Below, in pieces: positions 1 to 15,094 of a DNA stretch of 16,120 bases (the stretch's first letter is position 1; each line of letters begins with the position of its first letter). The notes under the pieces were generated by a model. It saw only the letters and a program-made list of their open reading frames with translations. It had not been told where the DNA came from and searched no databases. The translations under genes and the position numbers were made by a program. This DNA is from a virus (lineage: Duplodnaviria; Heunggongvirae; Uroviricota; Caudoviricetes): positions 1 to 16,120 of the IMG/VR virus record IMGVR_UViG_2778261035_000013; one strand, given 5' to 3'.

Positions 1-1284
1 TTAATCAATCAAAAAATCCCACAAATCTCTTAAGGTATGGAAGTTTTGATTTCCACCGTTCATATATTCATCACACATTTTTTCAAGATCATCATCGTCT
101 ATTGACAGGATAAAACCTCTGCCATCATTTGCCGTGTCAAGACAACGCTGTCTGAATAATTTTTTATCCTCAATCTTCCTACAAACGAGAATACCTACAT
201 TTCCCCTATTCCTTGAGAACCTACCAGATAACTGATCTAACTCAGGATTTGCAATTTCTGACGTATAGTTTTTACACTCAACATAAATTCTAGGGCATGT
301 GTAATGTTGCGAAAGCCAATTAAAGAAACCATATTTGGCTTCATTATTATAAGTAATATCAATCCTCTTTCTACCATCATGAATTTTTTTCTGTTTCGTT
401 GGATAACATAATGAAGGATAGAATATTACAGAAAATATCTCTTCAATAAGATCTTCGTACTCCCCAGCTTGTTTTGTACCCGGCTTTAATGATTTTAATT
501 TATTGAGAATTGGATATATGTCAATTTTGTCACTGATTTCCTCTAACTCATTGAAAACTTCATGTGATAATGGTGCAGATGGATTTTTTTCTTTATGCTG
601 TTTATAATCTTCAAATACATCAGGCCGTTGTAAAGTTTGATTAATTACAGAAGGCTTATCACTTCCATATTTATTTTTTAAACTTTTTTTAGTTACTCGC
701 CTCGTGCCATTTTTTAATACCTCTACCAAGGAAGAGTTATTCCTTAAATGTTCATCTTGCATTTCTGGCAATAAATAATGATTATAAAACTCGTCATATT
801 GCAAACATAACCTATGTCTAACCAATAGCTTAGGAACTAATATTACTTTTCCATAAGTTGTCATTGGTAATGATACAAATTCACTATACCACTTTCCTCC
901 ATGTGGATCCCATATTGGCCCAGAATCAATATTGGGCGTTAATTTTACGCCATAATATTCACATATTTCTTGTGTGTATTTTATAAATGGACCTCTTAAA
1001 ATATTGCTTACTGCATCAGAAATCATGTCAGTCCCGATTCCTGGTATTAGTAGCGCTGTATCTTCAAGATCTTTTAACAATCCAGTTGTGACGGCCTTAC
1101 TTTGAGTTAGTGCATTCCAAACCGAATGAGCGGAGCCAGCGCCAAAACCATGTCCACGAGATTTTTCGGACGAATACCCTAAATGAAATTCATTCCTCTC
1201 ATTCAACGAGGCTAACAATTTTTGTGCTTCAGCATTTTTGCCAACCTTAATTAGTTTTAAAACCTTCTCAAAGAAACTTTGCAA
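1..1284 (-). CDS. hypothetical cargo protein (427 aa in ORF track) with C-terminal PD-(D/E)xK-like nuclease signature; candidate defence gene
   Basis: Long uninterrupted ORF whose stop codon is at 1..3. Motif ...HDGRKRIDITY...(26 aa)...RIYVECKNY fits the D...(D/E)xK pattern of restriction-endonuclease-fold nucleases. AT-rich (about one third GC over the first 60 nt). Only in-frame start before the first internal Met is TTG at 1284 with no obvious Shine-Dalgarno, so the 5' end is uncertain. Confidence 0.6.
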   Translation of the reverse strand: MQSFFEKVLKLIKVGKNAEAQKLLASLNERNEFHLGYSSEKSRGHGFGAGSAHSVWNALTQSKAVTTGLLKDLEDTALLIPGIGTDMISDAVSNILRGPFIKYTQEICEYYGVKLTPNIDSGPIWDPHGGKWYSEFVSLPMTTYGKVILVPKLLVRHRLCLQYDEFYNHYLLPEMQDEHLRNNSSLVEVLKNGTRRVTKKSLKNKYGSDKPSVINQTLQRPDVFEDYKQHKEKNPSAPLSHEVFNELEEISDKIDIYPILNKLKSLKPGTKQAGEYEDLIEEIFSVIFYPSLCYPTKQKKIHDGRKRIDITYNNEAKYGFFNWLSQHYTCPRIYVECKNYTSEIANPELDQLSGRFSRNRGNVGILVCRKIEDKKLFRQRCLDTANDGRGFILSIDDDDLEKMCDEYMNGGNQNFHTLRDLWDFLID

Positions 1285-2044
1285 GTGAGATGTAAGTTCT
1301 TGCCCCCAATTCGAATCTAAGGATTTAATAGCACCAGGGTCTAGAAAAACTGGTGTCAGTATCTAGTGGTATGTCAACGAAATCTAGATAAGCTTGAGAA
1401 CGATTAAGTTTGAAATATTCCGAAAAGCGCATAAAGACTCCTAAAAATCGAATGGTTTTTCAAAAAACATAACGCTATTAAAGAATCAACCAAAAATTGA
1501 TGAGATGGGGCACAGCTTAAGCAGAGAGATTCATGTTGAACGATTGAACTCATCATCTCAAGTAAAGATAAATATGGCAAGTACGTGGTTTGACGGTTGA
1601 GCAACCATTGATTGCTTCACCTATCAAAAAGTCGGATTAATATCAAGAAAGTTTAAAACACACCATCACTTAAAATCATTTAACGACGAAAATCGCACTA
1701 CACCGCACCCGCCTGCGGTTTTCATATCACTAAAATTTTTCAGTTGTGATTTTTTACAAACGATATCGCCAGCCCGCGCCCGCTCTGGGGATGCTCTGCG
1801 AGACAGGAACTGAAAAGAATGAAAAGAAATTCAGCTTTTTTCAGTTTTACTGTCCGTCATGTCTGTGGTCTGAATACGCAACACTATGATATTAAATGGA
1901 TAATTTATTTTAGGTGTGTGATTTTATGAAAATTTGTGAAACATGAAAAACATAACAACTTGAAAAATAATAATTTTATGTCCGTATAAACTGAAATCCT
2001 GTGTTCAGGTTTCGGGAACGGATCGGCCACTCCCGACGCATACT

Positions 2045-2317
2045 TTACCCATTTTTTTGCGCAGCCAGCAGCAACTTTAAAGCCTTTTCCCGCTCCTCGG
2101 GTGGAATGGCATCAATGAGCTCTTTAACCCTCCCCTGCCCGTTCAGCGCGCTTGGACTAACGGAATGGGAGAAAGCAACATTCATCACAAACGAGTGACC
2201 GCACTCCACATTAGAGCAATAGCAGTACACATCGTACAGTTGTGGGTGTTTCCTGTTTGTTTTACCTATCCGCGCTACTGCCTGACATGTGGGGCAGTAC
2301 ATTCTCATCATCTTCAT
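2045..2317 (-). CDS. ogr: Ogr/Delta-family zinc-finger late-gene transcription activator
   Basis: MYCPTCQ...(18 aa)...YCYCSNVECGHSF matches the CPxC...CxNVxCxxxF signature of P2 Ogr / P4 Delta. Several in-frame ATGs (2317, 2311, 2308, 2302), so the exact start is uncertain. Confidence 0.8.
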   Translation of the reverse strand: MKMMRMYCPTCQAVARIGKTNRKHPQLYDVYCYCSNVECGHSFVMNVAFSHSVSPSALNGQGRVKELIDAIPPEEREKALKLLLAAQKNG

Positions 2318-2385
2318 CGTTCTGTGCCCTATACTGTTGCCCGCCAGAGGAAGGGATTTGGAACCCTACCTCTTGTTCTGAACGC

Positions 2386-2574
2386 GTAACACTGGTAACA
2401 CGTGTAACATTATTGATTTAAAAGGATTTAATCTGTTACCAGTTAGCATAATCAAGAGGTAACGCGTGGTAACACACCATTTTTTGTTACCAGTGTTACC
2501 AGTCAGTATTTTTGACTGGTAACACTGAAGAACAGCATCAGTCGCGGGTGTTACCTCTGTTACCAGTGTTACCT
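2386..2574. repeat. iteron array (putative origin / cis replication region for the alpha primase-helicase)
   Basis: Eleven copies of the heptamer GGTAACA/TGTTACC in about 190 bp: forward at 2387, 2395, 2404, 2468, 2518; reverse at 2434, 2485, 2494, 2549, 2558, 2567; a near copy at 2458. Copies within clusters are spaced 8-9 bp. Lies between the alpha stop (2600) and the ogr start. Resembles the P4 type I iteron TGTTCACC. Confidence 0.65.
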
Positions 2575-2599
2575 CATAAAAATAAGACTCACGCGATAA

Positions 2600-5287
2600 T
2601 TACTCAGGTTCGGCGCTTCCCAGTACCTGTGTATTGAACTGGTACACACGTTTAAGCCCTATTTCTGGCAGGCGAATGCTGTTTTGCGTCCGGCCATCTT
2701 CACCGGGTTTCAGCCAGCCCGCGTCCACACACAACCTGGCCACCTTACGCGAGTCAAATCCCTTACAGATCTCCTTCCAGCCTGACGGGAGAACGTAGAA
2801 CGTCACAACCGGCTCCGTTACGTTGTCTCCTTTATCGACTTTTCTGAATCCCATCATTGAAACAGGCCGGTTCCTGTCGTCATTCCAGTCAGCAAACCGA
2901 CTGAACTGATTACGCGTCATGAAGTCCCGTACCTGTTCAAGTGCCGCTTTATCTTCCTGATTAGCTGTATGGCCACGGTCAGCCATCCATGCAGCCAGAC
3001 AACGTTGAGCGGCACGAAAGGCCTCTCCCTCCGGCCATCCTGTGATGCCCGCTTTTGTGGCCAGTTCCCCGGCCATCGCAACCAGAGCAAAACGGGTAAC
3101 AGCCCGGCCAACCTGATTCCCGGCATTTTCCGGCGTCAGCCTTCGGGTGTACTCTTTCAATAAGGCTTTCGCCTGGCTGGTCAGTTCCGGCAGTTCAGCG
3201 GTCAGGCAATGCAGCCAGTCGCGGAATGGTGCGCCATGATAATGCGCTACGTGCTGCTCAAGATGCTCAGCCAGGGTTTTCCCGCTACTGAAGCCATGAA
3301 GTTCTTCAAACACGCCATATTTGCCCGAATCGCTTGGGATCTGGATCATTCTGACCTCAACCCCGGCATACGTACGTTCCCCGGCGCTTGCGGCATGCTC
3401 TACCAGTGACAGTTCCCCGGTGGACAGAAACAACAGATTCCAGCGGTTGGTTTCCCTTACCGAACCATCTGTTCTTGCTCTGGCTTTGCCCTGCCCGTTA
3501 GCCAGCATATAAGCGATATTCCCCGCCTCCCTGCCGTCAACCTCCCGGATTTCATCGAGCATCAGCGTGGCATCATTGCGGCGGCTCGCCGTTCCTTCTA
3601 ATGCATTCCCCGTCGCCCGCCACGTATGCCAGAAATCTGTTCCACCACATACTGATGCAGCCACTTTCATCGTCGTGGTTTTACCGTCTGTTGATTCCCC
3701 TTTGAGGTGATAACCTCCACCGCCGATACCAACCAGTTTCAGAAGGGGGGCAGCAAATGCCAGACTCACCGCAAAGGCAAGACGGGCATTCTTTATGCAG
3801 TAACGGCCTATATTTTCACGCCAGTCCTCTGATGTGCCGCTGACACGAAAATCACGCCCCTGCACACTCGATGTTTGTAAGATGACTGACTGGGCTTCGC
3901 GCCCTATCACTTCATCCTGGAGAACGTAAACCCCGCCGTGCCAACCCGTTTTATTCACACAGGTTACTTTTCTGTCCGGTTTACACAGCGAGATATATTC
4001 CATCAGGAATGCTCTGGCCATACCGTTAATGTTGATGTAAGAAAGCCCGTTAACCAGCAGAACGCGGCGCAGTTCTTCCCCGCTGCCACCCAGCATCTCC
4101 ATCGGCATTGCCCATTTACGGCTGTTTCCGTTGGTATCTTCCCATTCCAGCAAACGCCCGTAATTACTTCCATCAGCATCACTGGTGATTGCCGTCACCC
4201 GCAACGGACTGCAAATTTTGATATTACGTATCTCTGTATCACCATCAGACTTATTAACCAGCTTGTCGTACCACAAATATTCTTTTGTCAGCCGGAACCC
4301 TTCTGGTAAACGGGTCTGCCCTTTGCCATGCAACGTCATTTCTTCACGAAAGGCATCTCTCGCCCGTTCTTTCCCCACTTCCTGCCGATAATCATCCCAG
4401 TCAGCCTTATGGCGTACCGGAGGGAGCGTTACCCAGCCATCCACCGCTTTGGCGGCTTTCTCTGCCTGAATACGCCCGGTGTTTTCTTTGCCGTCAGCCA
4501 GATCATTATCTCCTGCCACAATGATCCGGGTTTCCGGCCAGCGTTTTCGGATCTGCTCCGTCACCTTCAGTAAATTGGTGGCAGCGACAGCCGCCACGAT
4601 CCATCCTTCAGTCAGCAGACTGACGGTAAGCGCCGTGGCAAAACCCTCAGTGATAATCACCTGTTCAGGTGTTTCAGCGGGTATATCTGTCAGGGCAATG
4701 AATGCGCCAGACAGCTGGCTACCGGGCAGCAGACTTTTATCCCCGTCAGGATTGATAAGCTGGCCACCGGTAATATTCCCGGAAATATCCGTCAACGGCA
4801 GCAGTAATGAACCGGAGGAAAATGTTATTCCGGCCAGATTCAAAGGCTGTGACAGCAAGGGAAGTGAATACCCGTGTAAGCCCTTGTTTGTCAGATAGAC
4901 CGGCTCACCATTGCAGGACTGCTGTCTGAGTCGGGTATATCCCTCCGCGCCCGCTTCTTTTCCTGCTGCCTTTTTCCTGGCTGGCAAAGCGGGCTTCTCC
5001 TGTATTTCTGGTAATGCAAGCGCCTCAGATACCATCCCGGCGACTTCTTTTATCTTTCTCCCTGTCACCAGACGAACCAGGTCAAGACCATCGCCATGAC
5101 CGCACTGATTACAAAACCACGTCCCACGCCCCGCTTTATCGTCCAGCCGAAAGCGATCTTTTCCACCACAGGCAGGGCAAGCCCCATGATGTCCTGCGGA
5201 CGGTACTTTAATACCTAATGCTGACAGGATATAAGGCCAACGGCCAATTGCAGCCCCTGAAATTGTGGATACAGACGGTGTTTTCAC
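2600..5287 (-). CDS. P4 alpha-like bifunctional DNA primase-helicase (895 aa)
   Basis: N-terminal zinc ribbon CPACGGKDRFRLDDKAGRGTWFCNQCGHGDG, Toprim-like acidic motif IIVAGDNDLADG, Walker A P-loop GESTDGKTT in the C-terminal half. GTG start at 5287 overlaps the stop of the upstream ORF (GTGA). Confidence 0.9.
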   Translation of the reverse strand: MKTPSVSTISGAAIGRWPYILSALGIKVPSAGHHGACPACGGKDRFRLDDKAGRGTWFCNQCGHGDGLDLVRLVTGRKIKEVAGMVSEALALPEIQEKPALPARKKAAGKEAGAEGYTRLRQQSCNGEPVYLTNKGLHGYSLPLLSQPLNLAGITFSSGSLLLPLTDISGNITGGQLINPDGDKSLLPGSQLSGAFIALTDIPAETPEQVIITEGFATALTVSLLTEGWIVAAVAATNLLKVTEQIRKRWPETRIIVAGDNDLADGKENTGRIQAEKAAKAVDGWVTLPPVRHKADWDDYRQEVGKERARDAFREEMTLHGKGQTRLPEGFRLTKEYLWYDKLVNKSDGDTEIRNIKICSPLRVTAITSDADGSNYGRLLEWEDTNGNSRKWAMPMEMLGGSGEELRRVLLVNGLSYININGMARAFLMEYISLCKPDRKVTCVNKTGWHGGVYVLQDEVIGREAQSVILQTSSVQGRDFRVSGTSEDWRENIGRYCIKNARLAFAVSLAFAAPLLKLVGIGGGGYHLKGESTDGKTTTMKVAASVCGGTDFWHTWRATGNALEGTASRRNDATLMLDEIREVDGREAGNIAYMLANGQGKARARTDGSVRETNRWNLLFLSTGELSLVEHAASAGERTYAGVEVRMIQIPSDSGKYGVFEELHGFSSGKTLAEHLEQHVAHYHGAPFRDWLHCLTAELPELTSQAKALLKEYTRRLTPENAGNQVGRAVTRFALVAMAGELATKAGITGWPEGEAFRAAQRCLAAWMADRGHTANQEDKAALEQVRDFMTRNQFSRFADWNDDRNRPVSMMGFRKVDKGDNVTEPVVTFYVLPSGWKEICKGFDSRKVARLCVDAGWLKPGEDGRTQNSIRLPEIGLKRVYQFNTQVLGSAEPE

Positions 5288-5694
5288 AGCAGCACCTCCT
5301 GACCTTCCGGCTTCACAAATTCAAAACCTTCGGGTAGTTCGCCATCAGGTGCACCGAAAATAATATCCCGGTAAACCTCACGCATCTCTGTGACACCAAA
5401 AACTGACAGGCGAATATTTTCTGACATAAAGCCCGGTTTAAGCATCTTTTCCAGTTTCTCTGCGGCCAGTATGCAACCTGCATCAGCCCCAAATTCATTC
5501 ACCCACGGCATTTCAATATGGTAAATAATATTACTCACCACTTTTTCGTGGGTGAGTTCTATTCGTTCGCCATCTTCAATATAAACAGGTTCATTATGAA
5601 CACGCGCCATTAAGGAAATGAATGCATCAGCAATGTAATACCGTAAGACTGCTGTTCGTAAAGCATGCACCTTTAAATTTTGATTATTATTCAT
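5284..5694 (-). CDS. hypothetical protein (136 aa), alpha-operon member
   Basis: ORF with ATG start; start overlaps the stop of the upstream ORF by 8 nt and its stop overlaps the alpha start; backbone-like GC. Confidence 0.6.
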   Translation of the reverse strand: MNNNQNLKVHALRTAVLRYYIADAFISLMARVHNEPVYIEDGERIELTHEKVVSNIIYHIEMPWVNEFGADAGCILAAEKLEKMLKPGFMSENIRLSVFGVTEMREVYRDIIFGAPDGELPEGFEFVKPEGQEVLL

Positions 5695-5923
5695 CGCGCA
5701 TCACTCCCTTAATTGTGCTGGTTTCCTTAACAACGCCATCCAGTTGTTCGGCAATACAGGCCACTAAAGCCGCAGCGCCTTCCGCTGAAACAGTTCTCGC
5801 TCCATTCACTGTGGGAACGGACAGAACCTCTGCAAGAAATTCACTGGCCAGTGCCGCCCGTAACAGACGACTCTCACCCAGTTCACTCAATATGCAGCCT
5901 TGCTTAAAATTCATGGATTTCAT
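5687..5923 (-). CDS. hypothetical protein (78 aa), alpha-operon member
   Basis: ATG at 5923 overlaps the stop of the upstream ORF (ATGA); GGAGGTG Shine-Dalgarno 5 nt upstream. Confidence 0.5.
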   Translation of the reverse strand: MKSMNFKQGCILSELGESRLLRAALASEFLAEVLSVPTVNGARTVSAEGAAALVACIAEQLDGVVKETSTIKGVMRDE

Positions 5924-6123
5924 GCAACCACCTCCCCGGAGCTTTTCACAGGGATACGGGCAGCAAAGCTCAGGATAAATTCAGTGGCAAGTTTAAGGCG
6001 TGCAGCATGCTCGCAGTCTGCGATTACACGCACAGGACGTGGACGGGCATCACGGTCTGTACGGCGGACAGCCAGAAAGACAAAGGTAAATTCAGGGTGA
6101 GATAAAGCAGGGACTGTAGCCAT
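5920..6123 (-). CDS. hypothetical protein (67 aa), first gene of the alpha operon
   Basis: ATG at 6123 preceded by GAAGGAGG Shine-Dalgarno. The ORF-track ORF (5920..6609, 229 aa) extends upstream over the regulatory leader and terminator and is probably not translated there. Confidence 0.45.
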   Translation of the reverse strand: MATVPALSHPEFTFVFLAVRRTDRDARPRPVRVIADCEHAARLKLATEFILSFAARIPVKSSGEVVA

Positions 6124-6175
6124 AATGGCAACCTCCTTCAGATAGCGGGTAACGCTACCACCGGAGTTCCTACGC

Positions 6176-6342
6176 TCATGGGTGGTAGCCCAGACGGGGG
6201 TAGGAATACCGGCTCTGAAGGATACCGGCCAGCCCGAAAGCTGCCCCGCCTGGACTACCATAATACTGATGATGTGGCGTAAAAAATAAAAAAATACAAT
6301 CAGCCACCACACCATAAATTTTAGGTGAGTCAAAGCTGCGAC
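6176..6342 (-). ncRNA. candidate CI/C4-like immunity antisense RNA (boundaries approximate)
   Basis: Region between the intrinsic terminator and the operon RBS that contains the inverted (seqB-like) motif copy at 6199..6224; no coding potential with RBS seen. By analogy with P4 CI RNA and P1/P7 C4 RNA. Ends not determinable from sequence. Confidence 0.3.
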
Positions 6343-6367
6343 ACAAAAAAACACGCCTGGCGCGTGT
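6343..6367 (-). terminator. rho-independent terminator
   Basis: On the minus strand: ACACGC / GCCAG loop / GCGTGT followed by TTTTTTT (plus-strand A-run at 6345..6351). Confidence 0.6.
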
Positions 6368-6563
6368 AGTATCGCCTTCAGATAACACGGGTTCCTACGC
6401 CCGGCTGCCGATTTTGCGGCAACCTTTAAACTATATCCCGTGCATTCCTGGTGAGGCAAGAAATTTATAACCGAAAACTGATCATTGCCTGGATTAATTA
6501 ACGCTGGCATGCTTAAGCCTCTGCTTAAAAATAGTTCTTCATTTTTTCCTGATGCTGTAAACG

Positions 6564-6585
6564 AGACCCGCCTCTGAGCGGGTCT
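6564..6585 (-). terminator. hairpin immediately 3' of the capsid gene (putative terminator)
   Basis: Perfect 8-bp stem AGACCCGC/GCGGGTCT with 6-nt loop, 13 nt after the capsid stop; the T-rich tract is on the plus-strand side only, so function as a minus-strand terminator is uncertain. Confidence 0.35.
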
Positions 6586-6598
6586 TTCTGTCGCTAAG

Positions 6599-7603
6599 TC
6601 AATCCGCAAACGTCAGAGCGCTCTCATCGACAGCCGCGTACAGTTCTGGTTCACCGAGTGCATAGCCTTCATTGCGCAGGTAGGAATGTACGTATTCACT
6701 GTTTTCATCATCAAACTCAGCACGAAACCAGCGTGTTATCGCCTGGGTGTATATATGCAGATTATCCAGCGTCGTTACTGCCAGACGCTTACCCGGCATA
6801 AACGGGGGAATAAACGCAAAGCGGCCAGCAACAGAACTTGTAGCCATCTGTGCAGCATTCACATCAGCCGGGCGGTCTGCGGCATTAAATAACTTCAGGC
6901 GTTGATGTGCTGCCAGCTCTGCCCCAACTAGTACAACCAGACGGGGATCTTCACGAAACTGCTCAGCAATAAGCTCAGTAATCAGATGGTTGGCCAGAGA
7001 ATCAATATTTTTCCAGGTGCCAGTCTCTCCCAGAGTGACAGGCTCAGAGATGATTTGCTTCCCGTTTCCGTAGGCTTTCGCCAGTGCATGCCAGCCAATA
7101 TTGACATCCTCGCCTTTTTTATTGATTTCCGGGTTTGTAGTATTTGCAATCGACACACCATTGAAACCGATCCGCAGCATATCCAGCGCATATGCCTGAG
7201 CAAAAAAGCTCTCAACCGTTTTCTCAAACTCATCCGGCACGCCGGTATGGTAAATATGAGACATATCGGAATAGCTGATCCGGGCGCAGGTATCCGTCTC
7301 TGTCAGAAAGAACTCCGTACCATTGATTGCTATTTTTTTGTGGAAACGGCCACCATCCGCACGTCCGGTATGCAGTTCACTGGCACCAATATTGACGGCA
7401 TTACCTGACACGGCGTTAACATCACGTAGCGTGATATTTTTAATAAGCCAACCGGATTCCAGAATTGAGGTACGCAGTATATTTTCAGTGGGTTCGCTTA
7501 ATGCAAAGCGTCTGTTTGATTCCTCCTGATAGTTAGTGCCAGTAACGAATTTATTATGATAACGACGTGCTGCGTCCGGCCTTTCAGTTTTGAAGGCATA
7601 CAT
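6599..7603 (-). CDS. P2 gpN-like major capsid protein (334 aa; HK97 fold inferred)
   Basis: Recognisable similarity to P2 gpN as recalled from memory: N-terminal RFALSEPTENILRTSILESGWLIKNITLRDV vs KFTVEPSVTQTLMNTMQESSDFLTRINIVPV; GFNGV; NIGW vs AVGW; EDPRLVVLVGAELAA vs EDPDLVVIVGRQLLA; LDNLHIY vs LENLSIY. ATG start with GGTGA RBS. Confidence 0.75.
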   Translation of the reverse strand: MYAFKTERPDAARRYHNKFVTGTNYQEESNRRFALSEPTENILRTSILESGWLIKNITLRDVNAVSGNAVNIGASELHTGRADGGRFHKKIAINGTEFFLTETDTCARISYSDMSHIYHTGVPDEFEKTVESFFAQAYALDMLRIGFNGVSIANTTNPEINKKGEDVNIGWHALAKAYGNGKQIISEPVTLGETGTWKNIDSLANHLITELIAEQFREDPRLVVLVGAELAAHQRLKLFNAADRPADVNAAQMATSSVAGRFAFIPPFMPGKRLAVTTLDNLHIYTQAITRWFRAEFDDENSEYVHSYLRNEGYALGEPELYAAVDESALTFAD

Positions 7604-7625
7604 AGTTTTTCACCTTTTTTAGTAT

Positions 7626-8498
7626 TTAAGAAAAGATTTTATTTTTGTACTCAGTAACCCGATTGTATTTCATTACATGCTCAACATAATCCCGGTCACT
7701 TACGACTGAACGTAATACATAATTATCTGCTCGATAGTACTCCCTGTAAGCCATGACTCTTGCCATTCCACCGTTATTTAATACATAACGATCAGTTGGA
7801 ACGCTACAACGGCTAATAATTTCATTCACAGAATCAGACAAAGATTTGAGTGCATCTGTAATAAATTTAATATCACGAACAACGTCACCGTCATTAAACA
7901 CAGAAATAAAATCAGCAGGGATCTGGCCGGATTGAGGAAATATGCTCAGTAAACGCTTCTCAACTCCCTTACCAATGTAGTTAACTTCATCGGCCAGTAC
8001 GCCCGGTAAAAGCTTGATTGTGCTCAGTCGGTTATGTTGCTCATTCAGCCGGGAAACAGCCAGATGGTAACACCGTTCAGCATCCGCTCGTTCAGCATGC
8101 CCCGTTTTATTCGTTTTGGCTTCAGCAATGCTACTGACGCCGTTTTTTGAGAATGTGCTTTTCCATGCAACTTCCGCATTTGTCACTTCACGCTGCCGGA
8201 AAGATAACTCTTCCTCTTCCTGACGACACAACTGGGCATACCGGCTTAGGAGTAGGTTGATCTCATTCGCCACAGCTTCCGTATCAGGTACTGTTAATCC
8301 CGTAAGTGAATACAGCTTTTCACCTTTAGCGCGCAGCTTATTTAATGAAAATATTTCAATAATTCGCACAATACATGCAGTGTCGCTATGAGTTTCTTTA
8401 AACGGACTTACTTTATAGTTTCCTAACACGGAAACATATTCATTCTTAATTGGAAGGGATATGTATTGACTCCCCGCCGGTTGTAGACGGTAATTCAT
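7626..8498 (-). CDS. hypothetical AT-rich protein (290 aa) immediately upstream of the capsid gene
   Basis: ATG with GAGGAG Shine-Dalgarno; 22-bp gap to the capsid gene; central region rich in charged/helical sequence (LLLSRYAQLCRQEEEELSFRQREV...); lower GC than flanking backbone. Confidence 0.6.
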   Translation of the reverse strand: MNYRLQPAGSQYISLPIKNEYVSVLGNYKVSPFKETHSDTACIVRIIEIFSLNKLRAKGEKLYSLTGLTVPDTEAVANEINLLLSRYAQLCRQEEEELSFRQREVTNAEVAWKSTFSKNGVSSIAEAKTNKTGHAERADAERCYHLAVSRLNEQHNRLSTIKLLPGVLADEVNYIGKGVEKRLLSIFPQSGQIPADFISVFNDGDVVRDIKFITDALKSLSDSVNEIISRCSVPTDRYVLNNGGMARVMAYREYYRADNYVLRSVVSDRDYVEHVMKYNRVTEYKNKIFS

Positions 8499-8534
8499 AT
8501 AAACTCCTCATAAATTCTTCTAATACTAATGTTT

Positions 8535-8735
8535 TTACTCTGAAGAATGACTATCACGCCAAGCATAGTAGTCACCAGCACGCCATCGGGACATACGACC
8601 TAACTTGATTGGTTTAGGAAAACGTCCCAGAGAAATCAGTTTATAAATCCATTTATCAGTAAACAGACAATCAGATGTAATGAATTTCATATCAATGAGC
8701 GAGTCAGCAGAAGGACGATTATCAGTAAACCCCAT
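8535..8735 (-). CDS. alpA: AlpA-family phage transcriptional regulator / excisionase-like (66 aa)
   Basis: Motif LGRFPKPIKLGRMSRWRAGDYYAW matches the AlpA FPKPxKLG...W signature. ATG at 8735 preceded by AGAGAGGAA; the ORF-track start at 8759 is a TTG extension. Confidence 0.75.
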   Translation of the reverse strand: MGFTDNRPSADSLIDMKFITSDCLFTDKWIYKLISLGRFPKPIKLGRMSRWRAGDYYAWRDSHSSE

Positions 8736-8800
8736 AATGAGTTCCTCTCTATGTATCAATCTATATCAACGAAGAGGATTAAAACATCGTTCAAAAACAT

Positions 8801-8835
8801 AAAAAAGGCGAGTAAGAAAAATTTCCTTACTCACC
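8801..8835 (-). terminator. rho-independent terminator after the int-proximal cargo gene
   Basis: Stem 8807..8816 / 8826..8835 (GGCGAGTAAG vs GGTGAGTAAG, one mismatch) with 9-nt loop, followed on the minus strand by TTTTTT (plus A-run 8801..8806). Confidence 0.5.
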
Positions 8836-8842
8836 AAAATTG

Positions 8843-9631
8843 TTAATTTTTTGTAAATGATGGTTTCTTGAATATAGATGATATTAGTTTGCTAATAATT
8901 GGGTGTGATAGCGGAGGCTCTTTTTTATCAGGCCAAAATTCCTCAGCCCGACTAAAGATAAGGTCAGCAAGGGCTGCTGCATTTTCCTTTCGGTATGCCA
9001 TGTCCTCTTTATAAAGATATAATGCTACACTTAGAATCTCATTTCTCTTGGTAGCATGTCTTTCTTGCTGTGCAATTGATAACGATTTATATTTATCATT
9101 AGAAACATCACCATTTAATATCAGATGCAATTTCTTTACATCTTCCCGCTCCAGGTACGCATCTCCCTCATATCCAAACCCATCATCATTTTTCCAGTCA
9201 ATTTGAATATATTTGACCATTTCAGAATAGGTGGTACCAGTAGGAGACAACAATGATGGGTACTCCGGGAACTGCCCCTCATAAAAAACGAAATCACTTT
9301 TAACTTTTGGTGGCATTTGGAAATAGCCTTTTGTACTCGCCAGCACTAGTTTTTTATCTTTTTTAACTTCATTAATCTTAATCAAACTAAACTCAGATAT
9401 ATAACTAAAACCATCTTTATCTTTTTTCAAAGAGTTTATATTCTGAATAAAAGAGTCCACATCTCTTACTTTATGCTTTGAAAAAGACCATCGCCCACAC
9501 ATTCTTAGCGACAATTGAATGTCTTTTTCATCCGCAATATAAATAACATCTTGCTCATCGCAGCCCAATATTTTAGCGGCCTCACTAATACTATAATGAG
9601 TTCTATGAAGCTTGAGAGTATTATTTACCAT
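8843..9631 (-). CDS. hypothetical AT-rich cargo protein (262 aa) between int and alpA
   Basis: ATG start 3 bp after the integrase stop; N-terminal helix-turn-helix-like stretch YSISEAAKILGCDEQDVIY; followed by a terminator; AT-rich. Confidence 0.6.
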   Translation of the reverse strand: MVNNTLKLHRTHYSISEAAKILGCDEQDVIYIADEKDIQLSLRMCGRWSFSKHKVRDVDSFIQNINSLKKDKDGFSYISEFSLIKINEVKKDKKLVLASTKGYFQMPPKVKSDFVFYEGQFPEYPSLLSPTGTTYSEMVKYIQIDWKNDDGFGYEGDAYLEREDVKKLHLILNGDVSNDKYKSLSIAQQERHATKRNEILSVALYLYKEDMAYRKENAAALADLIFSRAEEFWPDKKEPPLSHPIISKLISSIFKKPSFTKN

Positions 9632-9634
9632 TAC

Positions 9635-10816
9635 TCAAGACTCCGTTCCACCAATAAAATCACTGTACCATTGCATCATTTCCCGACGCCCATCAAGATA
9701 CTGAGCATGATTATATATCCCCCGAATAGCATTTTTATCCAAATGTGCAAGCTGGGTTTCAATCCATGCACTATTGAAGCCTTTTTCATGCAAAATAGTG
9801 CTCATTGTGTGTCTGAAACCATGGCCAGTAACTCGGCCAGCATATCCAATACGCTTAAAGACCTGATTAATACTGGCCTCACTCATGCACTTACTTGGAT
9901 CGTTGCGCCCTGGAAACATCAAAGGATAGTTTCCAGTCAGTTCTTTTAATGTTTCAAGATGGGCTAATGCTTGATTTGAAAGCGGCACAATATGAGCACG
10001 TCGCATTTTCATACGTTCTTTAGGAATCTCCCACACCGCATTATCAAAATCCACCTCACGCCACTCACCTGCTCTTAGTTCTCCTGTTCTTAGACCCGTC
10101 AGGATAAGTAAATGTGCCCCCAGCAATACAATTGGGCTTCCTGAATAAGCGTTAAGGGCAGTAAAGAACTCCGGCAGCTCGTTGGCTTTGAGGAATGGAT
10201 AGTGGACTGCTTCATGTCCTTGCATCGCACTGGCAAGATCCGGTGCAGGATTGTAGATTGCTCTACCCGTTACGATGGCATAGCGGAAAACTTCACCGCA
10301 TCGCTGACGGACTTTCTTCGCTTTCTCCATAGCGCCTCGTGCTTCTATCAACCTCAGTACTTCAAGAAGTTCTAGGGGCTGAATATCGGCTATAGGTTTG
10401 TGTCCAATATGCGGGAAAATGTCTTTCTCAAACGCCTCAATGATGTCTGAAGCATAGCCCTCAGACCATTTGGGAGATTTCATTTTGTGCCACTCTAACG
10501 CCACTTCTCTGAATGGGTTAAGTGTCTCGATCGCTGCGTTTAAAGCATGCTTCTTTGCTTTTTTCACTTCGCCAGGATCTTCACCTGCTGCGAGTAGTTT
10601 CTTTGCGTCTTCGCGTTTTTGTCTGGCATCTGCGAGGGTGACTGTTGGATAGACACCAAAGGACAAGCGCTTCTCTTTACCAGCAAAACGGTACTTCATA
10701 CGCCAGTAACGCGAGCCATTAGGTTCAACCTGAAGGTACAGGCCACCTCCATCAGATAGCTTATAGCTCTTCTCTTTTCCTTTAGCGGCTTCAACCTTGC
10801 GAGCATTCAGCATCAT
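9635..10816 (-). CDS. int: P4-family tyrosine integrase
   Basis: N-terminus KSYKLSDGGGLYLQVEPNGSRYWRMKYRFAGKEK typical of P4-type integrases; C-terminal catalytic region with ...HGFRHT... and ...LAHLD...YNHAQY... consistent with the R/H/R/Y tyrosine-recombinase motifs; adjacent to the tRNA fragment. Start placed at the ATG at 10816; the ORF-track start at 10885 is TTG. Confidence 0.9.
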   Translation of the reverse strand: MMLNARKVEAAKGKEKSYKLSDGGGLYLQVEPNGSRYWRMKYRFAGKEKRLSFGVYPTVTLADARQKREDAKKLLAAGEDPGEVKKAKKHALNAAIETLNPFREVALEWHKMKSPKWSEGYASDIIEAFEKDIFPHIGHKPIADIQPLELLEVLRLIEARGAMEKAKKVRQRCGEVFRYAIVTGRAIYNPAPDLASAMQGHEAVHYPFLKANELPEFFTALNAYSGSPIVLLGAHLLILTGLRTGELRAGEWREVDFDNAVWEIPKERMKMRRAHIVPLSNQALAHLETLKELTGNYPLMFPGRNDPSKCMSEASINQVFKRIGYAGRVTGHGFRHTMSTILHEKGFNSAWIETQLAHLDKNAIRGIYNHAQYLDGRREMMQWYSDFIGGTES

Positions 10817-10980
10817 TGGGGGCACATTTCCTAGACCGAACAGAACATGCCCCCGATTGTGCCCCCAATTGTATGTTGATTTCAAGAGATAGGGGTTGAC
10901 GTCAAATGACGAAGAATCGCGTAATATCTATGTTTTTAAAGGGCTTTGTTGATTTGAGATGACTTGGAAATACTAAGGGA

Positions 10981-11026
10981 TGGTGCCGATAATAGGAGTC
11001 GAACCTACGACCTTCGCATTACGAAT
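10981..11026 (-). other. 46-nt 3' fragment of tRNA-Thr(CGU) (thrW-like): att core / displaced tRNA 3' end, not an intact tRNA
   Basis: Minus strand reads ATTCGTAATGCGAAGGTCGTAGGTTCGACTCCTATTATCGGCACCA, matching a thrW-type tRNA from the anticodon loop to the CCA end; the match breaks at 11027, so the 5' half of the tRNA is absent. Confidence 0.7.
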
Positions 11027-11356
11027 TATAAGAATCCGATTCTAATTCAAAGCATTACCCCATCAACACTGCGCTCACACGTCCCACCACATCAAAACAT
11101 GTAAAGCCTTGCAAGCCATTGTGAGGCCTTATGTGTCTCAGTTTTGTCCCATCTTGTATTACGACTCGCATAGCTAATGAAGATAAACGTGACGACAAAC
11201 GGCGAAGCAGTCTTCTTTTCTTTCGCTGCTTCCCCACACCCAGCATGCATACCTTTCCGTCATAACTGAAGTGAATGTCTGTTATGAGCGAGGAGCGGAC
11301 CTTGAATGAAGCACAAACATCCTATAGCTCCTATTATCAAAATGCGTGAGCAAAAA

Positions 11357-12172
11357 TTAATTGATATTTTGGGATATTTCTCTCAAGTATGGTTCAACCT
11401 CTGGGCGTTGCATATGATGCTTCATTGAGTCAAGAAAGGTTATGGGGGTTTGCATTACATCTACTTTAGATTTATTTTTCCTAATGAGAGTCATTCCTTT
11501 GCAAGTTTCTAAATATTCCTTAACTAAAGCTTTCTTTCGATTTCTATGCAAATCGCCTTTAAAAGCTAGAATATGAAAAATTGCGGCACCAATTACAATC
11601 TGTTTCACCGCGCATTCGGATGATTCGAATTCGCCCCATGAAATTCGACCAAAGAAAGGATTCGCATATCCAGAAGGATGCGCTTTGAGGTTATGGCCAT
11701 ATTTTAGCATTTCCGATGGTGTCAATTTTAATGGTTTAAACAACCCAGCCGAAATTGCAAAGTCTGAAAAGTCAGAACTCAACCCCAAAATAACATCTTT
11801 GTATTTATCAAAAAAAGACAATTTCTTCTCACTAGCCCTAGATGAATTAAATGCAACTTTAAGTAGCCAGCGAGAAAGCAAGCTATAATTATAATCGATA
11901 TTAACTTTTTCTTTTAAAAAACACTCTGTAAAGAAACCAGAGCGCTCTAGCATATTTTTGACATAACCATCTAAATTACATAGAACTACGTTATTACAAT
12001 GAAAACAAACATCTTTTATTTTAGCCTCACCACTTATCATTTTTTTTGATTTTTCTTGCCATCCTATAGTTTTCCCAGATGCTGTACTATATTGATATTC
12101 ATAGATGAAAGACGGGAGTATATGTTCTCTAGTCATTTTCCCTTCCTGACCACAATATATGCAAGTGCTCAT
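11357..12172 (-). CDS. hypothetical AT-rich protein (271 aa) with N-terminal HNH-like nuclease motif
   Basis: CIYCGQEGKMTREHILPSF...VCFHCNNVVLC gives a CxxC...EH...CxxC-N HNH-like arrangement in the first ~65 aa; ATG with AAGGA RBS; AT-rich. Confidence 0.6.
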   Translation of the reverse strand: MSTCIYCGQEGKMTREHILPSFIYEYQYSTASGKTIGWQEKSKKMISGEAKIKDVCFHCNNVVLCNLDGYVKNMLERSGFFTECFLKEKVNIDYNYSLLSRWLLKVAFNSSRASEKKLSFFDKYKDVILGLSSDFSDFAISAGLFKPLKLTPSEMLKYGHNLKAHPSGYANPFFGRISWGEFESSECAVKQIVIGAAIFHILAFKGDLHRNRKKALVKEYLETCKGMTLIRKNKSKVDVMQTPITFLDSMKHHMQRPEVEPYLREISQNIN

Positions 12173-12497
12173 CTTATTCCTTTATCAAAGATATAATAAC
12201 TAAAATTCGATTATAACAATTAAAAACTCGCGTTAGTAGTTGTTAACTTATCAATAAACAGTTTCTCAATTATTAGTCAGCATCATCAGAAGAAACCCCT
12301 CTCCAAAGATAATTTTATAAAATAATATAAATGTCCACGCCTGGCACGGAGTAGACTGGCTATCTAAGCTAAAGGTCTGCTGTGAGCGAAAAGCTGACAG
12401 GACGTAGTTTCTTGTTTAAAGAATCAGTTAAGGCATTAAAAATAGATGTAACCAGAGCCAAGGTATAATATCCTGGCTCTATTTACACTTGCGTACA

Positions 12498-13202
12498 TTA
12501 TTCTTGCTTTTTGGGAGGTTTTGGGTGTTTCTCAGGTAATTTTTCTGCAATCTTAAATACCCCCTCATCTTTTAGTATTGTTCGCATTACAAAATTTTCT
12601 ATAATTACCAAAAGTGATTTAAATTCAGCTTCGTTCGGTGACCATGCCCTGTGTGCTGCTGAGTTGCCAGCTTCGGTTACAATTTTAAGTTGGCTCCTTT
12701 CTGTTTCCCCAATAAAACCTTCCTCTTTAAGAATGTCAACCTTCTGGCCTAATGTATGTCCTGGGTGAATATTTAAAACTTCGACTGTTCTGTCAAAAAT
12801 AGTTCTGAGCCCAATTGCCGCTAAAATGAGTGATTTATTTTGAAATGCAATATACATTTCGTTCATTATCACATAAAGCTGATAATCTTTGCTTAATATC
12901 TCGCCAAACCAAGTGGGTCTAATCTCTTCTTGCTCTTGCGTAGGATATGTTGATATATGATAGTTATATACTATACAATCATAGCCTGACTCATCTCTTT
13001 CATAGTCGTAATCTTCACTATGACGGGATTTAATATATGTAAATATTCCGTCGCATCCCATGCACTCTAATAATTTGTATTCACTTTCAGCCCAAAAATA
13101 GTTGTCCCCATCCCCCTCGCTCCATTCTCTTTTTTTATAACCTATTGTGTGACAATTTTTTTCACCTTTACAGTATGGACAAGGCGCTTTGATTTTTTCC
13201 AT
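12498..13202 (-). CDS. hypothetical AT-rich protein (234 aa) with N-terminal zinc ribbon
   Basis: CPYCKGEKNCH...CMGCDG Cys cluster; C-terminal region with a GNSAAH motif loosely reminiscent of DUF4145/HEPN-like domains (unverified); ATG start without a clear Shine-Dalgarno. Confidence 0.5.
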   Translation of the reverse strand: MEKIKAPCPYCKGEKNCHTIGYKKREWSEGDGDNYFWAESEYKLLECMGCDGIFTYIKSRHSEDYDYERDESGYDCIVYNYHISTYPTQEQEEIRPTWFGEILSKDYQLYVIMNEMYIAFQNKSLILAAIGLRTIFDRTVEVLNIHPGHTLGQKVDILKEEGFIGETERSQLKIVTEAGNSAAHRAWSPNEAEFKSLLVIIENFVMRTILKDEGVFKIAEKLPEKHPKPPKKQE

Positions 13203-13572
13203 AATAATTATTCTGCCAATTAAATTAATATTGATATGACATATATGCCAATGATTTATAAACGATAAATTGACTATTCACTTTACTACAATAATTTTCA
13301 TATGAGTAGTGATAAGCCTCTCATTTTCTTTGTCGTAGATTGATCTGCTCTGTATCGATTAACACCGAATGGGGGAGTAGCTTCCGCTTTTGGCACATAG
13401 TAGTCCTAGAGACAGTGACGTAAAGTCATGGAGGATCGGTGGGAGGAGGTGCTAATCCTTTCATACAAAAAATATGTAAAATCAATAACGGCTGTAAATC
13501 ATTCAATACTCGCACTATCGGAAGTTCACCAGCCAGCCGCAGCACGTTCTTGCATACGACGAGCCTGCGGTT

Positions 13573-14127
13573 TCATTTATCTCCGACCGGAAACATCTTA
13601 TACAGTGTCGATACACCAACATCATAGATGATCGCCACCTTTTGGCGAGGAACGCCTGATGCAATTAATCGCCCGGCCTGCGCCCATTGTTCTGGTGTAA
13701 GTTTGGGACGACGTCCACCAATTCGTCCCTGCGCGCGAGCAGCTTCCAGTCCAGCTTTTGTTCGTTCAACAATCAGTTCTCGTTCCATTTCAGCCAAGGC
13801 ACCCATCACATGAAAGAAAAAACGCCCCATCGGTGTGCTGGTATCAATAGCATCCGTCAGGCTGCGAAAATTAACGCCACGTTCGCGCAACTCCTCAACT
13901 AGAATGACCAAATGCCGCATACTACGCCCCAGCCGATCCAGCTTCCAGACAACCAGTGTGTCACCTGCCGATAATGTCCTGAGCAGTTTTTTCAGTCCGG
14001 GCCTTTCGGACTTCGTACCGCTTATCTTGTCTTCAAAAATCAGCTCGCATCCTGCACAGTTCAGCGCATTACGTTGTAGATCTGTGTTCTGGTCATTTGT
14101 TGACACACGTACATAGCCAATAAGCAT
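13573..14127 (-). CDS. pin: Pin/Gin/Hin-family serine DNA invertase
   Basis: MLIGYVRVSTNDQNTDLQ...LVVWKLDRLGRSM...FRSLTD...MGRFFFHVMGALAEMERELI matches e14 Pin / Mu Gin (catalytic Ser in VRVST). Start placed at the ATG at 14127; the ORF-track start at 14163 is an upstream extension. Confidence 0.9.
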   Translation of the reverse strand: MLIGYVRVSTNDQNTDLQRNALNCAGCELIFEDKISGTKSERPGLKKLLRTLSAGDTLVVWKLDRLGRSMRHLVILVEELRERGVNFRSLTDAIDTSTPMGRFFFHVMGALAEMERELIVERTKAGLEAARAQGRIGGRRPKLTPEQWAQAGRLIASGVPRQKVAIIYDVGVSTLYKMFPVGDK

Positions 14128-14181
14128 GGTAGATCTCCCTGACAAAAGCAGGAATGATGCCATTTGCTCGTTATTTCTGCA

Positions 14182-14207
14182 TTTTCATAAACGTTGGTTT
14201 GAGAGAA
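14182..14207. other. left crossover site (pix/gix/hix-like) of the invertible segment
   Basis: TTTTCATAAACG TT GGTTTGAGAGAA has the 12+2+12 quasi-palindromic layout of Hin-family sites (compare hix TTATCAAAAACC AA GGTTTTTGATAA). Its inner half is an inverted repeat of the window end: the first 13 nt, GGTTTGAGAGAAG, match the reverse complement of 16108..16120 at 12 of 13. Confidence 0.55.
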
Positions 14208-14648
14208 GCGGCAAAACGAAATGTGGGCAACGGGGAAAACCAAATCCCTGATATGTCTTTCTGGACGGTTACTGGTGGCAATGGAAATTTTGTGATTCGT
14301 CAACCTGACGGGCTAATCATTCAGATGGTTACTGTAAGTATAAGCGGTCCAGTGGCGATGAATGGAATGACTGATAATGCTTATGCCATTACAGGTTCTA
14401 ATAAGTCTTATATTGCCACAGCCACATTGCCCTTTGTATTTCCTAATAAGGTGCTGGGCGTTATCCCTCTGGTATCAACAACAGCTTATGGTGGTGTATC
14501 CAGTAATATTACAGGTTCATACGCGACGGCGGTTTGTTCTTTTGCCGCTGTCAGGGGGAATAATACGATTGTGTTCAAAGTCGACAAACCACTGAATGCA
14601 GCCTTTCCTTCAGATACCAGCGTCTCAGCGTTAATCATTGGACGGTAA
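14196..14648 (+). CDS. tail fibre variable C-terminal cassette (currently promoterless/silent orientation)
   Basis: Reading frame begins inside the left crossover site (GLREAAKRNVGNGEN...); the upstream in-frame codons of the ORF-track ORF (from 14154) lie in the pin promoter region; followed directly by a tail-fibre assembly gene. Confidence 0.6.
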   Translation, partial: GLREAAKRNVGNGENQIPDMSFWTVTGGNGNFVIRQPDGLIIQMVTVSISGPVAMNGMTDNAYAITGSNKSYIATATLPFVFPNKVLGVIPLVSTTAYGGVSSNITGSYATAVCSFAAVRGNNTIVFKVDKPLNAAFPSDTSVSALIIGR

Positions 14649-14650
14649 TA

Positions 14651-15094
14651 ATGAACTCAGTATTCTTTTCACCCGGAAGTAAAAGTTTTTATCTGCAAGA
14701 ATTGTTTCCAGAATATGAGGATGCGGGAACGCTTCCTGATGATGTTATTGAAATTACCAGAGAAACATATGAGCAATTTCTTGGTCTGCATCCAGAAGGG
14801 AAAGAAATTGGCGCTGACAGTTCAGGACGGCCAATATGGATTAATTCCCCACCCCCTTCAAAAGAGGATGAGGTGTTGACGGCTGAAATGAAAAAAATAT
14901 CTTTGGTTTCAGAAGTCAATACCTACATCAATACCCATCAGTGGCCTGGCAAAGCTGCTATTGGTCGTCTGAAAGGCGAGGAACTGGCGCAATATAATTC
15001 GTGGCTGGATTATCTGGACGCACTGGAACTGGTCGATACTTCCTGTGCGCCAGATATTGAATGGCCTACGCCTCCGGCAGTTCAGGCCAGATGA
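14651..15094 (+). CDS. tail fibre assembly protein (147 aa) of the silent cassette
   Basis: ATG 2 nt after the upstream stop; C-terminal half AAIGRLKGEELAQYNSWLDYLDALELVDTSCAPDIEWPTPP parallels the C-terminus of the opposite assembly protein (TRLNAVLDYIDAVTATNTSTAPDVIWPELP). Confidence 0.7.
   Translation: MNSVFFSPGSKSFYLQELFPEYEDAGTLPDDVIEITRETYEQFLGLHPEGKEIGADSSGRPIWINSPPPSKEDEVLTAEMKKISLVSEVNTYINTHQWPGKAAIGRLKGEELAQYNSWLDYLDALELVDTSCAPDIEWPTPPAVQAR

Follow-up and report, generated by a model that had tools for sequence, protein, structure and literature searches.

The stretch of DNA considered here (IMG/VR record IMGVR_UViG_2778261035_000013, positions 1 to 16,120 of that record, from a member of the Caudoviricetes; herein referred to as the window) contains a complete satellite element of ~11.1 kb related to phage P4, and within this element, on the minus strand at 6599–7603, lies an intact major capsid gene of the P2 family. 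An earlier reading of the window from its letters alone (the sequence-only reading) had singled out this open reading frame (ORF) as a P2 gpN-like capsid gene, and its position, strand, ATG start and product length (334 aa) are exactly as described there; the gene also has the ribosome-binding site of its own that had been claimed for it (Shine–Dalgarno sequence AAGGTG, 7–12 nt 5' of the start) and a backbone-like GC content (0.47–0.50, within a backbone range of 0.45–0.57). The product matches the Pfam family Phage_cap_P2 (PF05125) over profile positions 16–325 of 327 (E = 7.6e-67; 226 bits against a cutoff of 27) and PHROG_70, "major head protein" (E = 1.2e-85); PGAP names the gene "P2 family phage major capsid protein", and a profile of the family matches the solved capsids of phiRSA1 (7oz4, E = 1e-32) and P2 gpN (7jw1, E = 8e-26). 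The resemblance to the gpN fold is borne out by an AlphaFold model, which has the full HK97 fold (predicted local distance difference test score, pLDDT, 79; predicted template modeling score, pTM, 0.79) and whose top Foldseek match is gpN in the P4 procapsid (7jw1; E = 1e-21, TM 0.68), with phiRSA1 7oz4 also recovered (E = 9e-18). As for the "gpN-like" label, P2-family membership stands by the Pfam, PHROG and profile searches, but identity to P2 gpN is only 21–24.5%, and the capsid proteins of ESSI-2-like phages are nearer (46–50%). The score against the NCBIfam equivalog TIGR01551 (202.2 bits) lies under the curated cutoff of 219.65, indicating a divergent member, for which the function of a phage gpN should not be taken for granted. 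A GC-rich hairpin (GACCCGC-N6-GCGGGTC; 6565–6584, minus strand), read from the sequence 15 nt 3' of the capsid stop codon, is possibly a weak terminator or an RNA-stabilizing element; it was not scored as a terminator in the terminator scan.

The element that surrounds the gene can be delimited. Positions 1–11026 of the window are 99.96% identical to a region of Escherichia coli TK3887, and identity stops at 11026, the end of an attachment (att) site that comparison with the tRNA gene identifies as the 3' 46 nt of tRNA-Thr (10981–11026, minus strand) and as the satellite end. In TK3887 the element is ~11.1 kb long, carries 18-bp attL/attR repeats at tRNA-Thr and is flanked by host genes on both sides. 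A complete element bounded by att sites with host genes outside leaves no head module hidden beyond the window, so the full head module that the sequence-only reading had considered as a possible undoing of its proposal does not exist there. Searches with Pfam, PHROG and BLASTP found no portal, terminase, Sid or Psu homologue in the window, as that reading had reported, nor is there any in the complete TK3887 element; genes for the scaffold (O), small terminase (M), large terminase (P) and portal (Q) are likewise missing as neighbors in both. No protein of the element has a BLASTP match to P4 Sid or Psu, and no match to epsilon was found within the window by Pfam or by BLASTP against P4.

Partner gene, conservation and origin of the satellite capsid gene

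The sequence-only reading had placed a lone capsid gene between alpA and the RNA-immunity leader. The gene does lie downstream of alpA and upstream of the isrK-like/C4 leader, but it is not adjacent to alpA, since a 290-aa ORF (hyp290; 7626–8498, minus strand) intervenes, nor is it alone: it is part of a two-gene module with hyp290, which becomes a three-gene module where a protease gene, GPO_N, is present, as in some genera. A positional homologue of hyp290 (278–319 aa) lies directly 5' of the capsid gene in every satellite locus whose contig spans that position, and these homologues, with motifs in common, are alignable at 18–31% identity between subclades. The predicted hyp290 structure (pLDDT 87) is all-helical with a long hairpin, and the gene evolves faster than the capsid gene within E. 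coli (ratio of nonsynonymous to synonymous substitution rates, dN/dS, 0.20 against 0.10). When 1.84 billion representative proteins were searched exhaustively with a profile of the hyp290 family, only 54 members were found, the full-length ones being of ~276–308 aa; the hyp290 profile matches Sid/Psu with a probability of 0.25%, and neither Psu nor Sid is among the structure matches.

In satellites of Yersinia, Providencia and Xenorhabdus, a gene of 173–177 aa that corresponds to the N-terminal, protease-only part of gpO (GPO_N; locus L003 11011–11532, L005 11017–11550, L011 11017–11538 and L013 11017–11538) directly follows the capsid gene. Its products are 44–55% identical to the N-terminal half of ESSI-2-like gpO and 31–39% identical to P2 gpO, and they are devoid of the C-terminal scaffolding domain of gpO, which fits a split in which the hyp290-type protein (typically ~285 aa) supplies the scaffolding role. 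No remnant of the gpO protease occurs anywhere in the E. coli window. Taken together, position, co-conservation, helical shape and the scaffold-less proteases of the relatives make a scaffold or size determinant the most economical guess for hyp290. In two relatives (L012 and L024) a hyp~310–capsid module sits on another chassis, in which a P2-type integrase, a C-like repressor and Cox replace the P4-type integrase and AlpA, and L012 also has a Toprim_2 primase; the occurrence of the pair on a different chassis indicates that the head module moves between satellite backbones.

The capsid gene is widespread. At 95% identity or more it is present in 449 of 5426 complete E. coli genomes (~8%), near full-length in 446 of the 449 carriers, and protein relatives at 50–98% identity occur throughout the Enterobacterales. 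Thirteen loci fetched directly (from Escherichia, Salmonella, Enterobacter, Cronobacter, Yersinia, Providencia, Xenorhabdus and one unassigned source) all share one architecture, namely a regulator (either AlpA or a combination of Cox and a C-type repressor), a 278–319-aa protein, the capsid gene and optionally GPO_N, together with a primase, Ogr/Delta, a cargo hotspot and an integrase at either end. A scan of IMG/VR, from which the 80 best loci were examined, added 18 satellite-type loci (with alpha, a hyp290 relative and cos, and without terminase, portal or sheath); the other 62 are phage-type, all with a large terminase (TerL), small terminase (TerS) or scaffold gene and most with the full terminase, portal, scaffold and sheath set. 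The sequence-only reading had asked whether homologous islands carry the gene at the same position, and they do: all 31 satellite loci (13 fetched and 18 from IMG/VR) have the module in the same arrangement of regulator, hyp~285, capsid, optional GPO_N, primase, Ogr, cos and hotspot. The satellite occurs at several integration sites and with different integrases. We considered presence in IMG/VR as evidence of packaging and set it aside, as the close relatives there lie terminally in prophage regions of ~50 kb that were predicted in genomes of isolates and are uninformative on particles. Copies of the capsid gene within E. coli show 20 synonymous and 7 nonsynonymous differences (dN/dS 0.10, against 0.05 for alpha), and between genera the gene's proportion of nonsynonymous differences (pN) is 0.09–0.17 with synonymous differences (pS) saturated. 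It is the best-conserved large gene of the element after alpha, and these substitution patterns indicate that it is under purifying selection.

The nearest phage capsid proteins are those of ESSI-2-like Peduoviridae (Quadragintavirus ev015/ev040, Evevirus ev239 and Seongnamvirus ESSI-2), which share the fold family of the satellite protein, are colinear with it over the full length at 46–50% identity and are encoded in a complete O-N-M-L and P-Q head module; a Vibrio Canoevirus capsid follows at ~40% identity, and P2 is far behind. In a neighbor-joining tree of 45 nonredundant sequences (23 satellite, of which 8 bear that label from sequence clustering and the others from checked context, and 22 phage), the satellite capsids group together as one clade with a bootstrap of 99/100, and the capsids of ESSI-2-like phages are the sister group of this clade. 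Median internal identity is 56% in the satellite clade and 80% in its phage sister, and this greater diversity suggests that the gene was captured once, long ago, and has since remained in satellites for a long time. The two clades diverge most in the N-terminal ~40 residues and at residues 81–140, the C-terminal half being conserved, a pattern compatible with a changed scaffold partner or with changed capsomer contacts.

The cos site, the probable helper lineage and the satellite chassis

Between the Ogr gene and the cargo gene the element carries a cohesive-end (cos) site (1685–1850, minus strand) with the 15-nt cohesive end GCGGGTGCGGTGTAG at 1698–1712 and CTGAAA/TTTCAG repeats on one side. 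The record of phage ESSI-2 has the same 15 nt, GCGGGTGCGGTGTAG, at its start and end, as would a record that spans the genome from one cohesive end to the other. This 15-mer has one exact match in the window against 0.01 expected by chance, and the whole interval of 1685–1850 is 75–80% identical over ~150 nt to a noncoding stretch of ESSI-2-like phages. The exact 15-mer is found right after Ogr in 13 of the 13 fetched satellite loci that reach this position and in all 18 satellite loci from IMG/VR, and it is invariant even among satellites whose capsid proteins share just ~50% identity with each other. The four to five CTGAAA/TTTCAG repeats beside it are the same set as in the phage, and TTGCAA/TGCAA stands at the same places in two satellite subclades (further cos regions lie at L007 ~16935–17099 and L012 ~15103–15270); it looks as if the recognition sequence of the small terminase has been switched around a fixed cut site. 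The P2/P4 cos (GGCGAGGCGGGGAAAGCAC, 19 nt) was tried as the packaging site and is absent from the window even with up to three mismatches allowed, so that P2, which the sequence-only reading had in mind in proposing a P2-like helper, was dropped. From the sequence evidence, the helper is almost certainly an ESSI-2-like member of the Peduoviridae (Seongnamvirus, Quadragintavirus, Evevirus). The 7.8-kb "Salmonella phage S.Kent 1-2-1", which has the same cos region, was considered as a further satellite and rejected; it shows the ESSI-2 ends contiguous across a single copy of the 15-mer and is rather a fragment of an ESSI-2-like phage.

Satellite and helper type reside together in E. coli TK3887, which holds a satellite capsid gene 100% identical to that of the window and, in addition, an ESSI-2-like prophage, complete at ~30 kb, in which the 15-mer and the repeats recur; the two capsid proteins are 49% identical. 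ESSI-2-like prophages occur in only 30 of the 5426 complete E. coli genomes, and all four genomes that carry the satellite capsid gene at 99% identity or more belong to those 30, three of the four being near-identical strains. The ratio of satellite to helper genome size (11.1 kb to ~30 kb) is 0.37, equal to that of P4 to P2. In complete E. coli genomes the satellite gene (449) is ~15 times commoner than ESSI-2-like prophages (30), which have been reported from 1 of 10,943 E. coli genomes and more often from Salmonella, Citrobacter and Enterobacter (PMC6969025). Satellites may outlive their helpers or may help to exclude them, and either would fit this gap.

The P4-related backbone described in the sequence-only reading is upheld by the integrase, the alpha primase domain, the C4 RNA and the Ogr/Delta gene. 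All genes of the window from 10885 down to 1 lie on the minus strand, in the order integrase, a 262-aa protein with a strong terminator, AlpA-like gene, hyp290, capsid gene, isrK-like and C4 RNAs, Icd-like ORF, two small ORFs, alpha-like primase, iterons, Ogr/Delta, cos-like site and candidate defense gene. The P4-family tyrosine integrase (9635–10885, minus strand; Pfam) is 43% identical to P4 Int over 409 aa. A terminator-like hairpin with a 13-bp stem and a T run (8807–8835, minus strand) divides the int–hyp262 unit from the alpA–hyp290–capsid block, the first gene of which encodes a putative AlpA-like helix-turn-helix regulator or excisionase (8535–8759, minus strand) whose start is probably the ATG at 8735. 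Its product matches Pfam Phage_AlpA (PF05930) weakly (E = 6.4e-4; 20 bits against a cutoff of 21), has a weak match to P4 orf88 (34% identity across 38 aa) and is called a helix-turn-helix regulator by PGAP. The TGT-N12-ACA dyad is the form taken by the late-promoter activator sites of P2 and P4, and it is present 5' of alpA in three of eight relatives (L025 ~7800–7817, L023 ~8753–8770 and L011 ~8846–8863). It lies ~55–70 nt 5' of alpA in those satellites in which no gene intervenes between the att side and alpA, and is absent in the window and in L022, where int–hyp262 and the terminator precede alpA.

Downstream of the capsid gene, an isrK-like leader RNA of the early (PLE-like) operon (6346–6423, minus strand; Rfam RF01394, 69.5 bits against a gathering score of 50) is preceded by a sigma-70-like promoter at 6459–6430 in the promoter scan and followed by a C4/CI-type antisense immunity RNA (6178–6265, minus strand; RF01695, 81.1 bits against 45), which an ORF 58% identical to the P4 cI region overlaps. 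The two RNAs in tandem make up a P4-type RNA immunity leader, across which PGAP has an overlapping "Icd-like" coding sequence. The alpha-like primase/helicase (2600–5287, minus strand) contains Zn-ribbon, Toprim and DUF927 domains by Pfam; its N-terminal 320 aa are 38% identical to P4 alpha, and its C-terminal part is the DUF927 domain, in which there is no BLASTP match to P4 alpha. Between alpha and ogr lies the probable replication origin (2371–2587), where the iteron TGTTACC(AGT) occurs at least eight times, with copies in either orientation. These iterons appear to resemble the type-1 repeats of the P4 origin, judged by the location annotated in the P4 record, and their placement downstream of the primase gene is presumably that of crr in P4. 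The Ogr/Delta-type late-gene activator (2045–2317, minus strand; PF04606, E = 5e-14) is of the single-domain Ogr type and is 48–51% identical to the Ogr proteins of ESSI-2-like phages, including that of the TK3887 prophage, and 21% identical to P4 delta. A candidate defense gene, PDC-M36A (1–1434, minus strand; PADLOC, E = 5.5e-53), occupies the hotspot between cos and attR, and in relatives (L003–L025) the slot from cos to the att site or integrase holds Kiwa (KwaAB), DndB, a retron-like reverse transcriptase with an STM3845-like protein, Abi_alpha or P4 cII-like sce7725/7726 genes. A PF25738 "Derepression" gene is found in the relatives L007, L012 and L024.

The remainder of the window, past the att copy (10981–16120), belongs to another island. 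It has two genes without known function (one with DUF4145) and a pinE-type invertase (13573–14163) with tail-fiber and tail-fiber-assembly cassettes on both sides, and constitutes an invertible remnant of the e14 type; in complete E. coli genomes, the only matches to the region right of att are e14-like pieces. That this remnant adjoins the att copy indicates that the islands lie in tandem at the tRNA-Thr site.

Possible roles of the capsid paralogue

The suggestion of the sequence-only reading that the protein builds satellite-sized capsids or interferes with the helper remains the best reading of its role, as far as genome comparison can tell. Between these, we lean toward the view that the ORF encodes a functional major capsid paralogue of a cos-packaged, P4-related satellite, which is mobilized by ESSI-2-like helpers and builds satellite-sized heads. 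Under this proposal, Sid and Psu would be replaced by a head module composed of hyp290, the capsid paralogue and, in some genera, GPO_N, and this module would be expressed upon growth of the helper. The satellite capsid protein, guided by hyp290 as the satellite's own scaffold or size determinant, would form small heads, probably of triangulation number T=4, with shells made either of the satellite protein alone or of a mixture with the helper's capsid protein, as for Ccm in the staphylococcal satellite SaPIbov5. The helper would provide the portal, terminase, head-completion proteins and tail, as well as the maturation protease where the satellite is without one; its terminase would cut and package satellite DNA at the helper-type cos, and the small heads would fit 11 kb and shut out the ~30-kb helper genome.

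Several observations weigh against this proposal. The co-occurrence of satellite and helper amounts to about two independent lineages, and the helper prophage is absent from most of the satellite-carrying E. coli genomes seen. No Ogr-type TGT-N12-ACA dyad lies upstream of alpA in the window, where the motif has three matches against 4.1 expected, one of them (2374–2391) inside the origin iterons. Comparison of the partner protein with Pfam families, solved structures, gpO scaffolds, Sid and Psu detected no relative, and the part assigned to this protein above is a guess from its position, its co-conservation with the capsid gene and its elongated helical shape. Finally, deletion of the lone capsid gene of EcCICFT073, an island with a lambda-type helper, did not relieve phage interference (PMC6092414), and the capsid genes of phage-inducible chromosomal islands (PICIs) have been reported to be unnecessary for helper-assisted transfer (PMC10111431); from these reports, the satellite capsid gene need not be essential.

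The deletion in EcCICFT073, which left interference with phage lambda unrelieved (PMC6092414), lends itself to a different explanation, in which the gene is a nonessential captured late gene, a spare or modulatory copy of a helper gene comparable to the lambda-E-type genes of many Gram-negative PICIs, and the satellite is packaged in helper-made heads. The PICI-like architecture (int, alpA, primase and unidirectional genes) also suits this explanation, which we nevertheless rate as improbable: monophyly in 99 of 100 bootstraps speaks for a single ancient acquisition and not for repeated capture, the gene is kept with a dedicated partner gene across genera in copies just 46–60% identical, and its dN/dS of 0.10 is not that of a spare copy, which would be expected to stay near the helper's gene or to decay. 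We regard as unlikely a role in interference only, whereby the capsid paralogue and hyp290 would act as a dominant-negative decoy that poisons the T=7 heads of the helper, protecting the host population or just lowering helper yield, and the satellite would travel in helper heads as multimers or hardly at all. At 46–50% identity to helper capsids, mixed assembly is potentially defective, the element has a defense-type cargo hotspot, and the prevalence figures (449 satellite against 30 helper-prophage genomes of 5426; 1 of 10,943 in PMC6969025) fit an element that excludes ESSI-2-like phages. Poisoning by itself, however, is at odds with the strictly conserved helper-type cos in every satellite, which argues for selection for packaging, with a size ratio of 0.37 that matches P4/P2, where small heads form, and with the retention of a protease gene in some members, which points to productive maturation; interference and size redirection usually coincide in known satellites, so that this is not a clean alternative. 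The gene could also have been left over from the full head module of a degraded P2-like prophage, or lie in a misassembled or chimeric region, as its membership in a phage structural family and its PGAP name might suggest. This is effectively excluded by a compact 11.1-kb element with att repeats that is found at several integration sites with different integrases, as well as by the lack of pseudogenized head genes, the intact gene in 446 of 449 genomes, purifying selection and a satellite-only clade.

A broader and more doubtful extension of the size-redirection proposal, which we put forward tentatively, is that these elements make up a class of Peduoviridae satellites in its own right, widespread and intermediate between P4 and the capsid-forming PICIs (cf-PICIs). 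Such satellites would build the whole T=4 shell from their own capsid protein, with a hyp290 scaffold and sometimes their own protease, and would take portal, terminase, head-completion proteins and tails from helpers, Sid/Psu and the capsid paralogue being exchangeable head modules on a P4 chassis.

P4 is the textbook satellite, and the view of its relatives has centered on Sid and Psu, which reshape the capsid protein of the helper; the elements described here combine a P4-type chassis with what may be another head strategy (a capsid paralogue with a partner protein), aimed at another lineage of Peduoviridae. If small heads are made, this would be the first case of which we are aware in which a satellite of a myovirus redirects capsid size by means of a capsid homologue, and it would stand naturally midway between satellites with entirely stolen capsids and satellites with capsids of their own making; the hyp290 family would then join the few known size determinants. 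The system is tractable, as TK3887 holds both the satellite and a helper-type prophage. For genome annotation, "P2 family phage major capsid protein" calls in enterobacteria are often satellite genes and are not proof of a P2-like prophage.

Relation to known satellites

With P4 and its helper P2, the element shares a P4-family integrase (43%), the alpha primase domain (38%), the C4/CI RNA, a putative AlpA/orf88-like gene, Ogr/Delta, iterons downstream of alpha, a cargo hotspot beside cos, a size of ~11 kb (~0.37 of the helper) and helpers among the Peduoviridae. It differs from P4 in being without Sid, Psu and epsilon, in its cos sequence and helper lineage, in its unidirectional genes with Ogr after alpha, in the DUF927 C-terminus of alpha and in having its own capsid gene, of which P4 has none. 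P4-like elements have been defined by seven components (int, psu, delta, sid, alpA, epsilon and alpha), no more than two of which may be missing (PMC8628076), so that an element in which three of the seven (sid, psu and epsilon) are missing falls outside the definition, and published genome surveys that demand five of the seven core genes would miss elements like the E. coli satellite. The large P4-like surveys make no mention of capsid genes (PMC8628076).

The cf-PICIs likewise have their own HK97-fold capsid protein, and their small capsids need not consist of helper protein (10.1101/2022.09.08.507074); however, they carry a full set of capsid, protease/scaffold, portal, head–tail connector and small terminase genes and take only tails, whereas the present satellites have the capsid gene and hyp290, with a protease domain in some genera, and no portal, connector or terminase, and their capsid protein belongs instead to PF05125. 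Other Gram-negative PICIs (EcCICFT073 with c1499, HE-PICI with 11capE, and PmCI172) resemble the satellite in their size of ~10–12 kb, in int, alpA and primase and in a single capsid gene without portal or terminase (PMC6092414, PMC10111431, PMC6893505). Those of E. coli have a lambda E-type capsid gene beside a D-like decoration gene and lambdoid helpers (PMC10111431), and EcCICFT073 is packaged in full-size heads (PMC6092414); the satellite differs from them in its P4-related backbone, its P2-family capsid protein with a dedicated partner gene and its Peduoviridae myovirus helper. EcCICFT073 was considered as a member of the same family and set apart by context, its capsid gene following the primase and adjoining a lambda D-like gene, and by the assignment of PICI capsid genes of this kind to the lambda E family in PMC10111431.

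The sequence-only reading knew of no such strategy, a view that does not hold in general, as many Gram-negative PICIs have a lone capsid gene (PMC6092414, PMC10111431) and SaPIbov5 offers a precedent in Ccm (PMC8569155). In a literature whose coverage here is incomplete, so that absence is no proof, P4-related satellites with a P2-family capsid gene were nowhere described; the elements nonetheless appear to be a coherent, widespread and seemingly undescribed satellite family, and what appears to be new is the use of a capsid paralogue in place of Sid/Psu in a P4-related Peduoviridae satellite. By analogy, the closest functional precedent is the Ccm of SaPIbov5 with its helper phi12 in Staphylococcus aureus, a satellite that is also cos-packaged at the helper's cos, has no terminase of its own and encodes a diverged homologue of the helper's HK97-fold capsid protein (PMC8569155, PMC5052747); the E. 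coli element shows the same genomic features, with a homologue of the capsid protein of the co-resident helper-type prophage (49%), a shared cos and no satellite terminase. Ccm makes T=4 heads by taking pentamer positions (PMC8569155), and this redirection to small heads is documented (PMC8569155, PMC5052747); for the E. coli satellite it would be a prediction. The SaPIbov5 system belongs to another phylum and another capsid family, with a siphovirus helper and a prolate-to-isometric switch, and Ccm (7rwz) has no detected homology to the satellite capsid protein beyond the HK97 fold (Foldseek E ~5e-8, TM ~0.47). The capsid gene of the E. coli satellite is further distinguished from that of SaPIbov5 by its constant pairing with a gene for a helical protein, which is sometimes joined by a protease gene.

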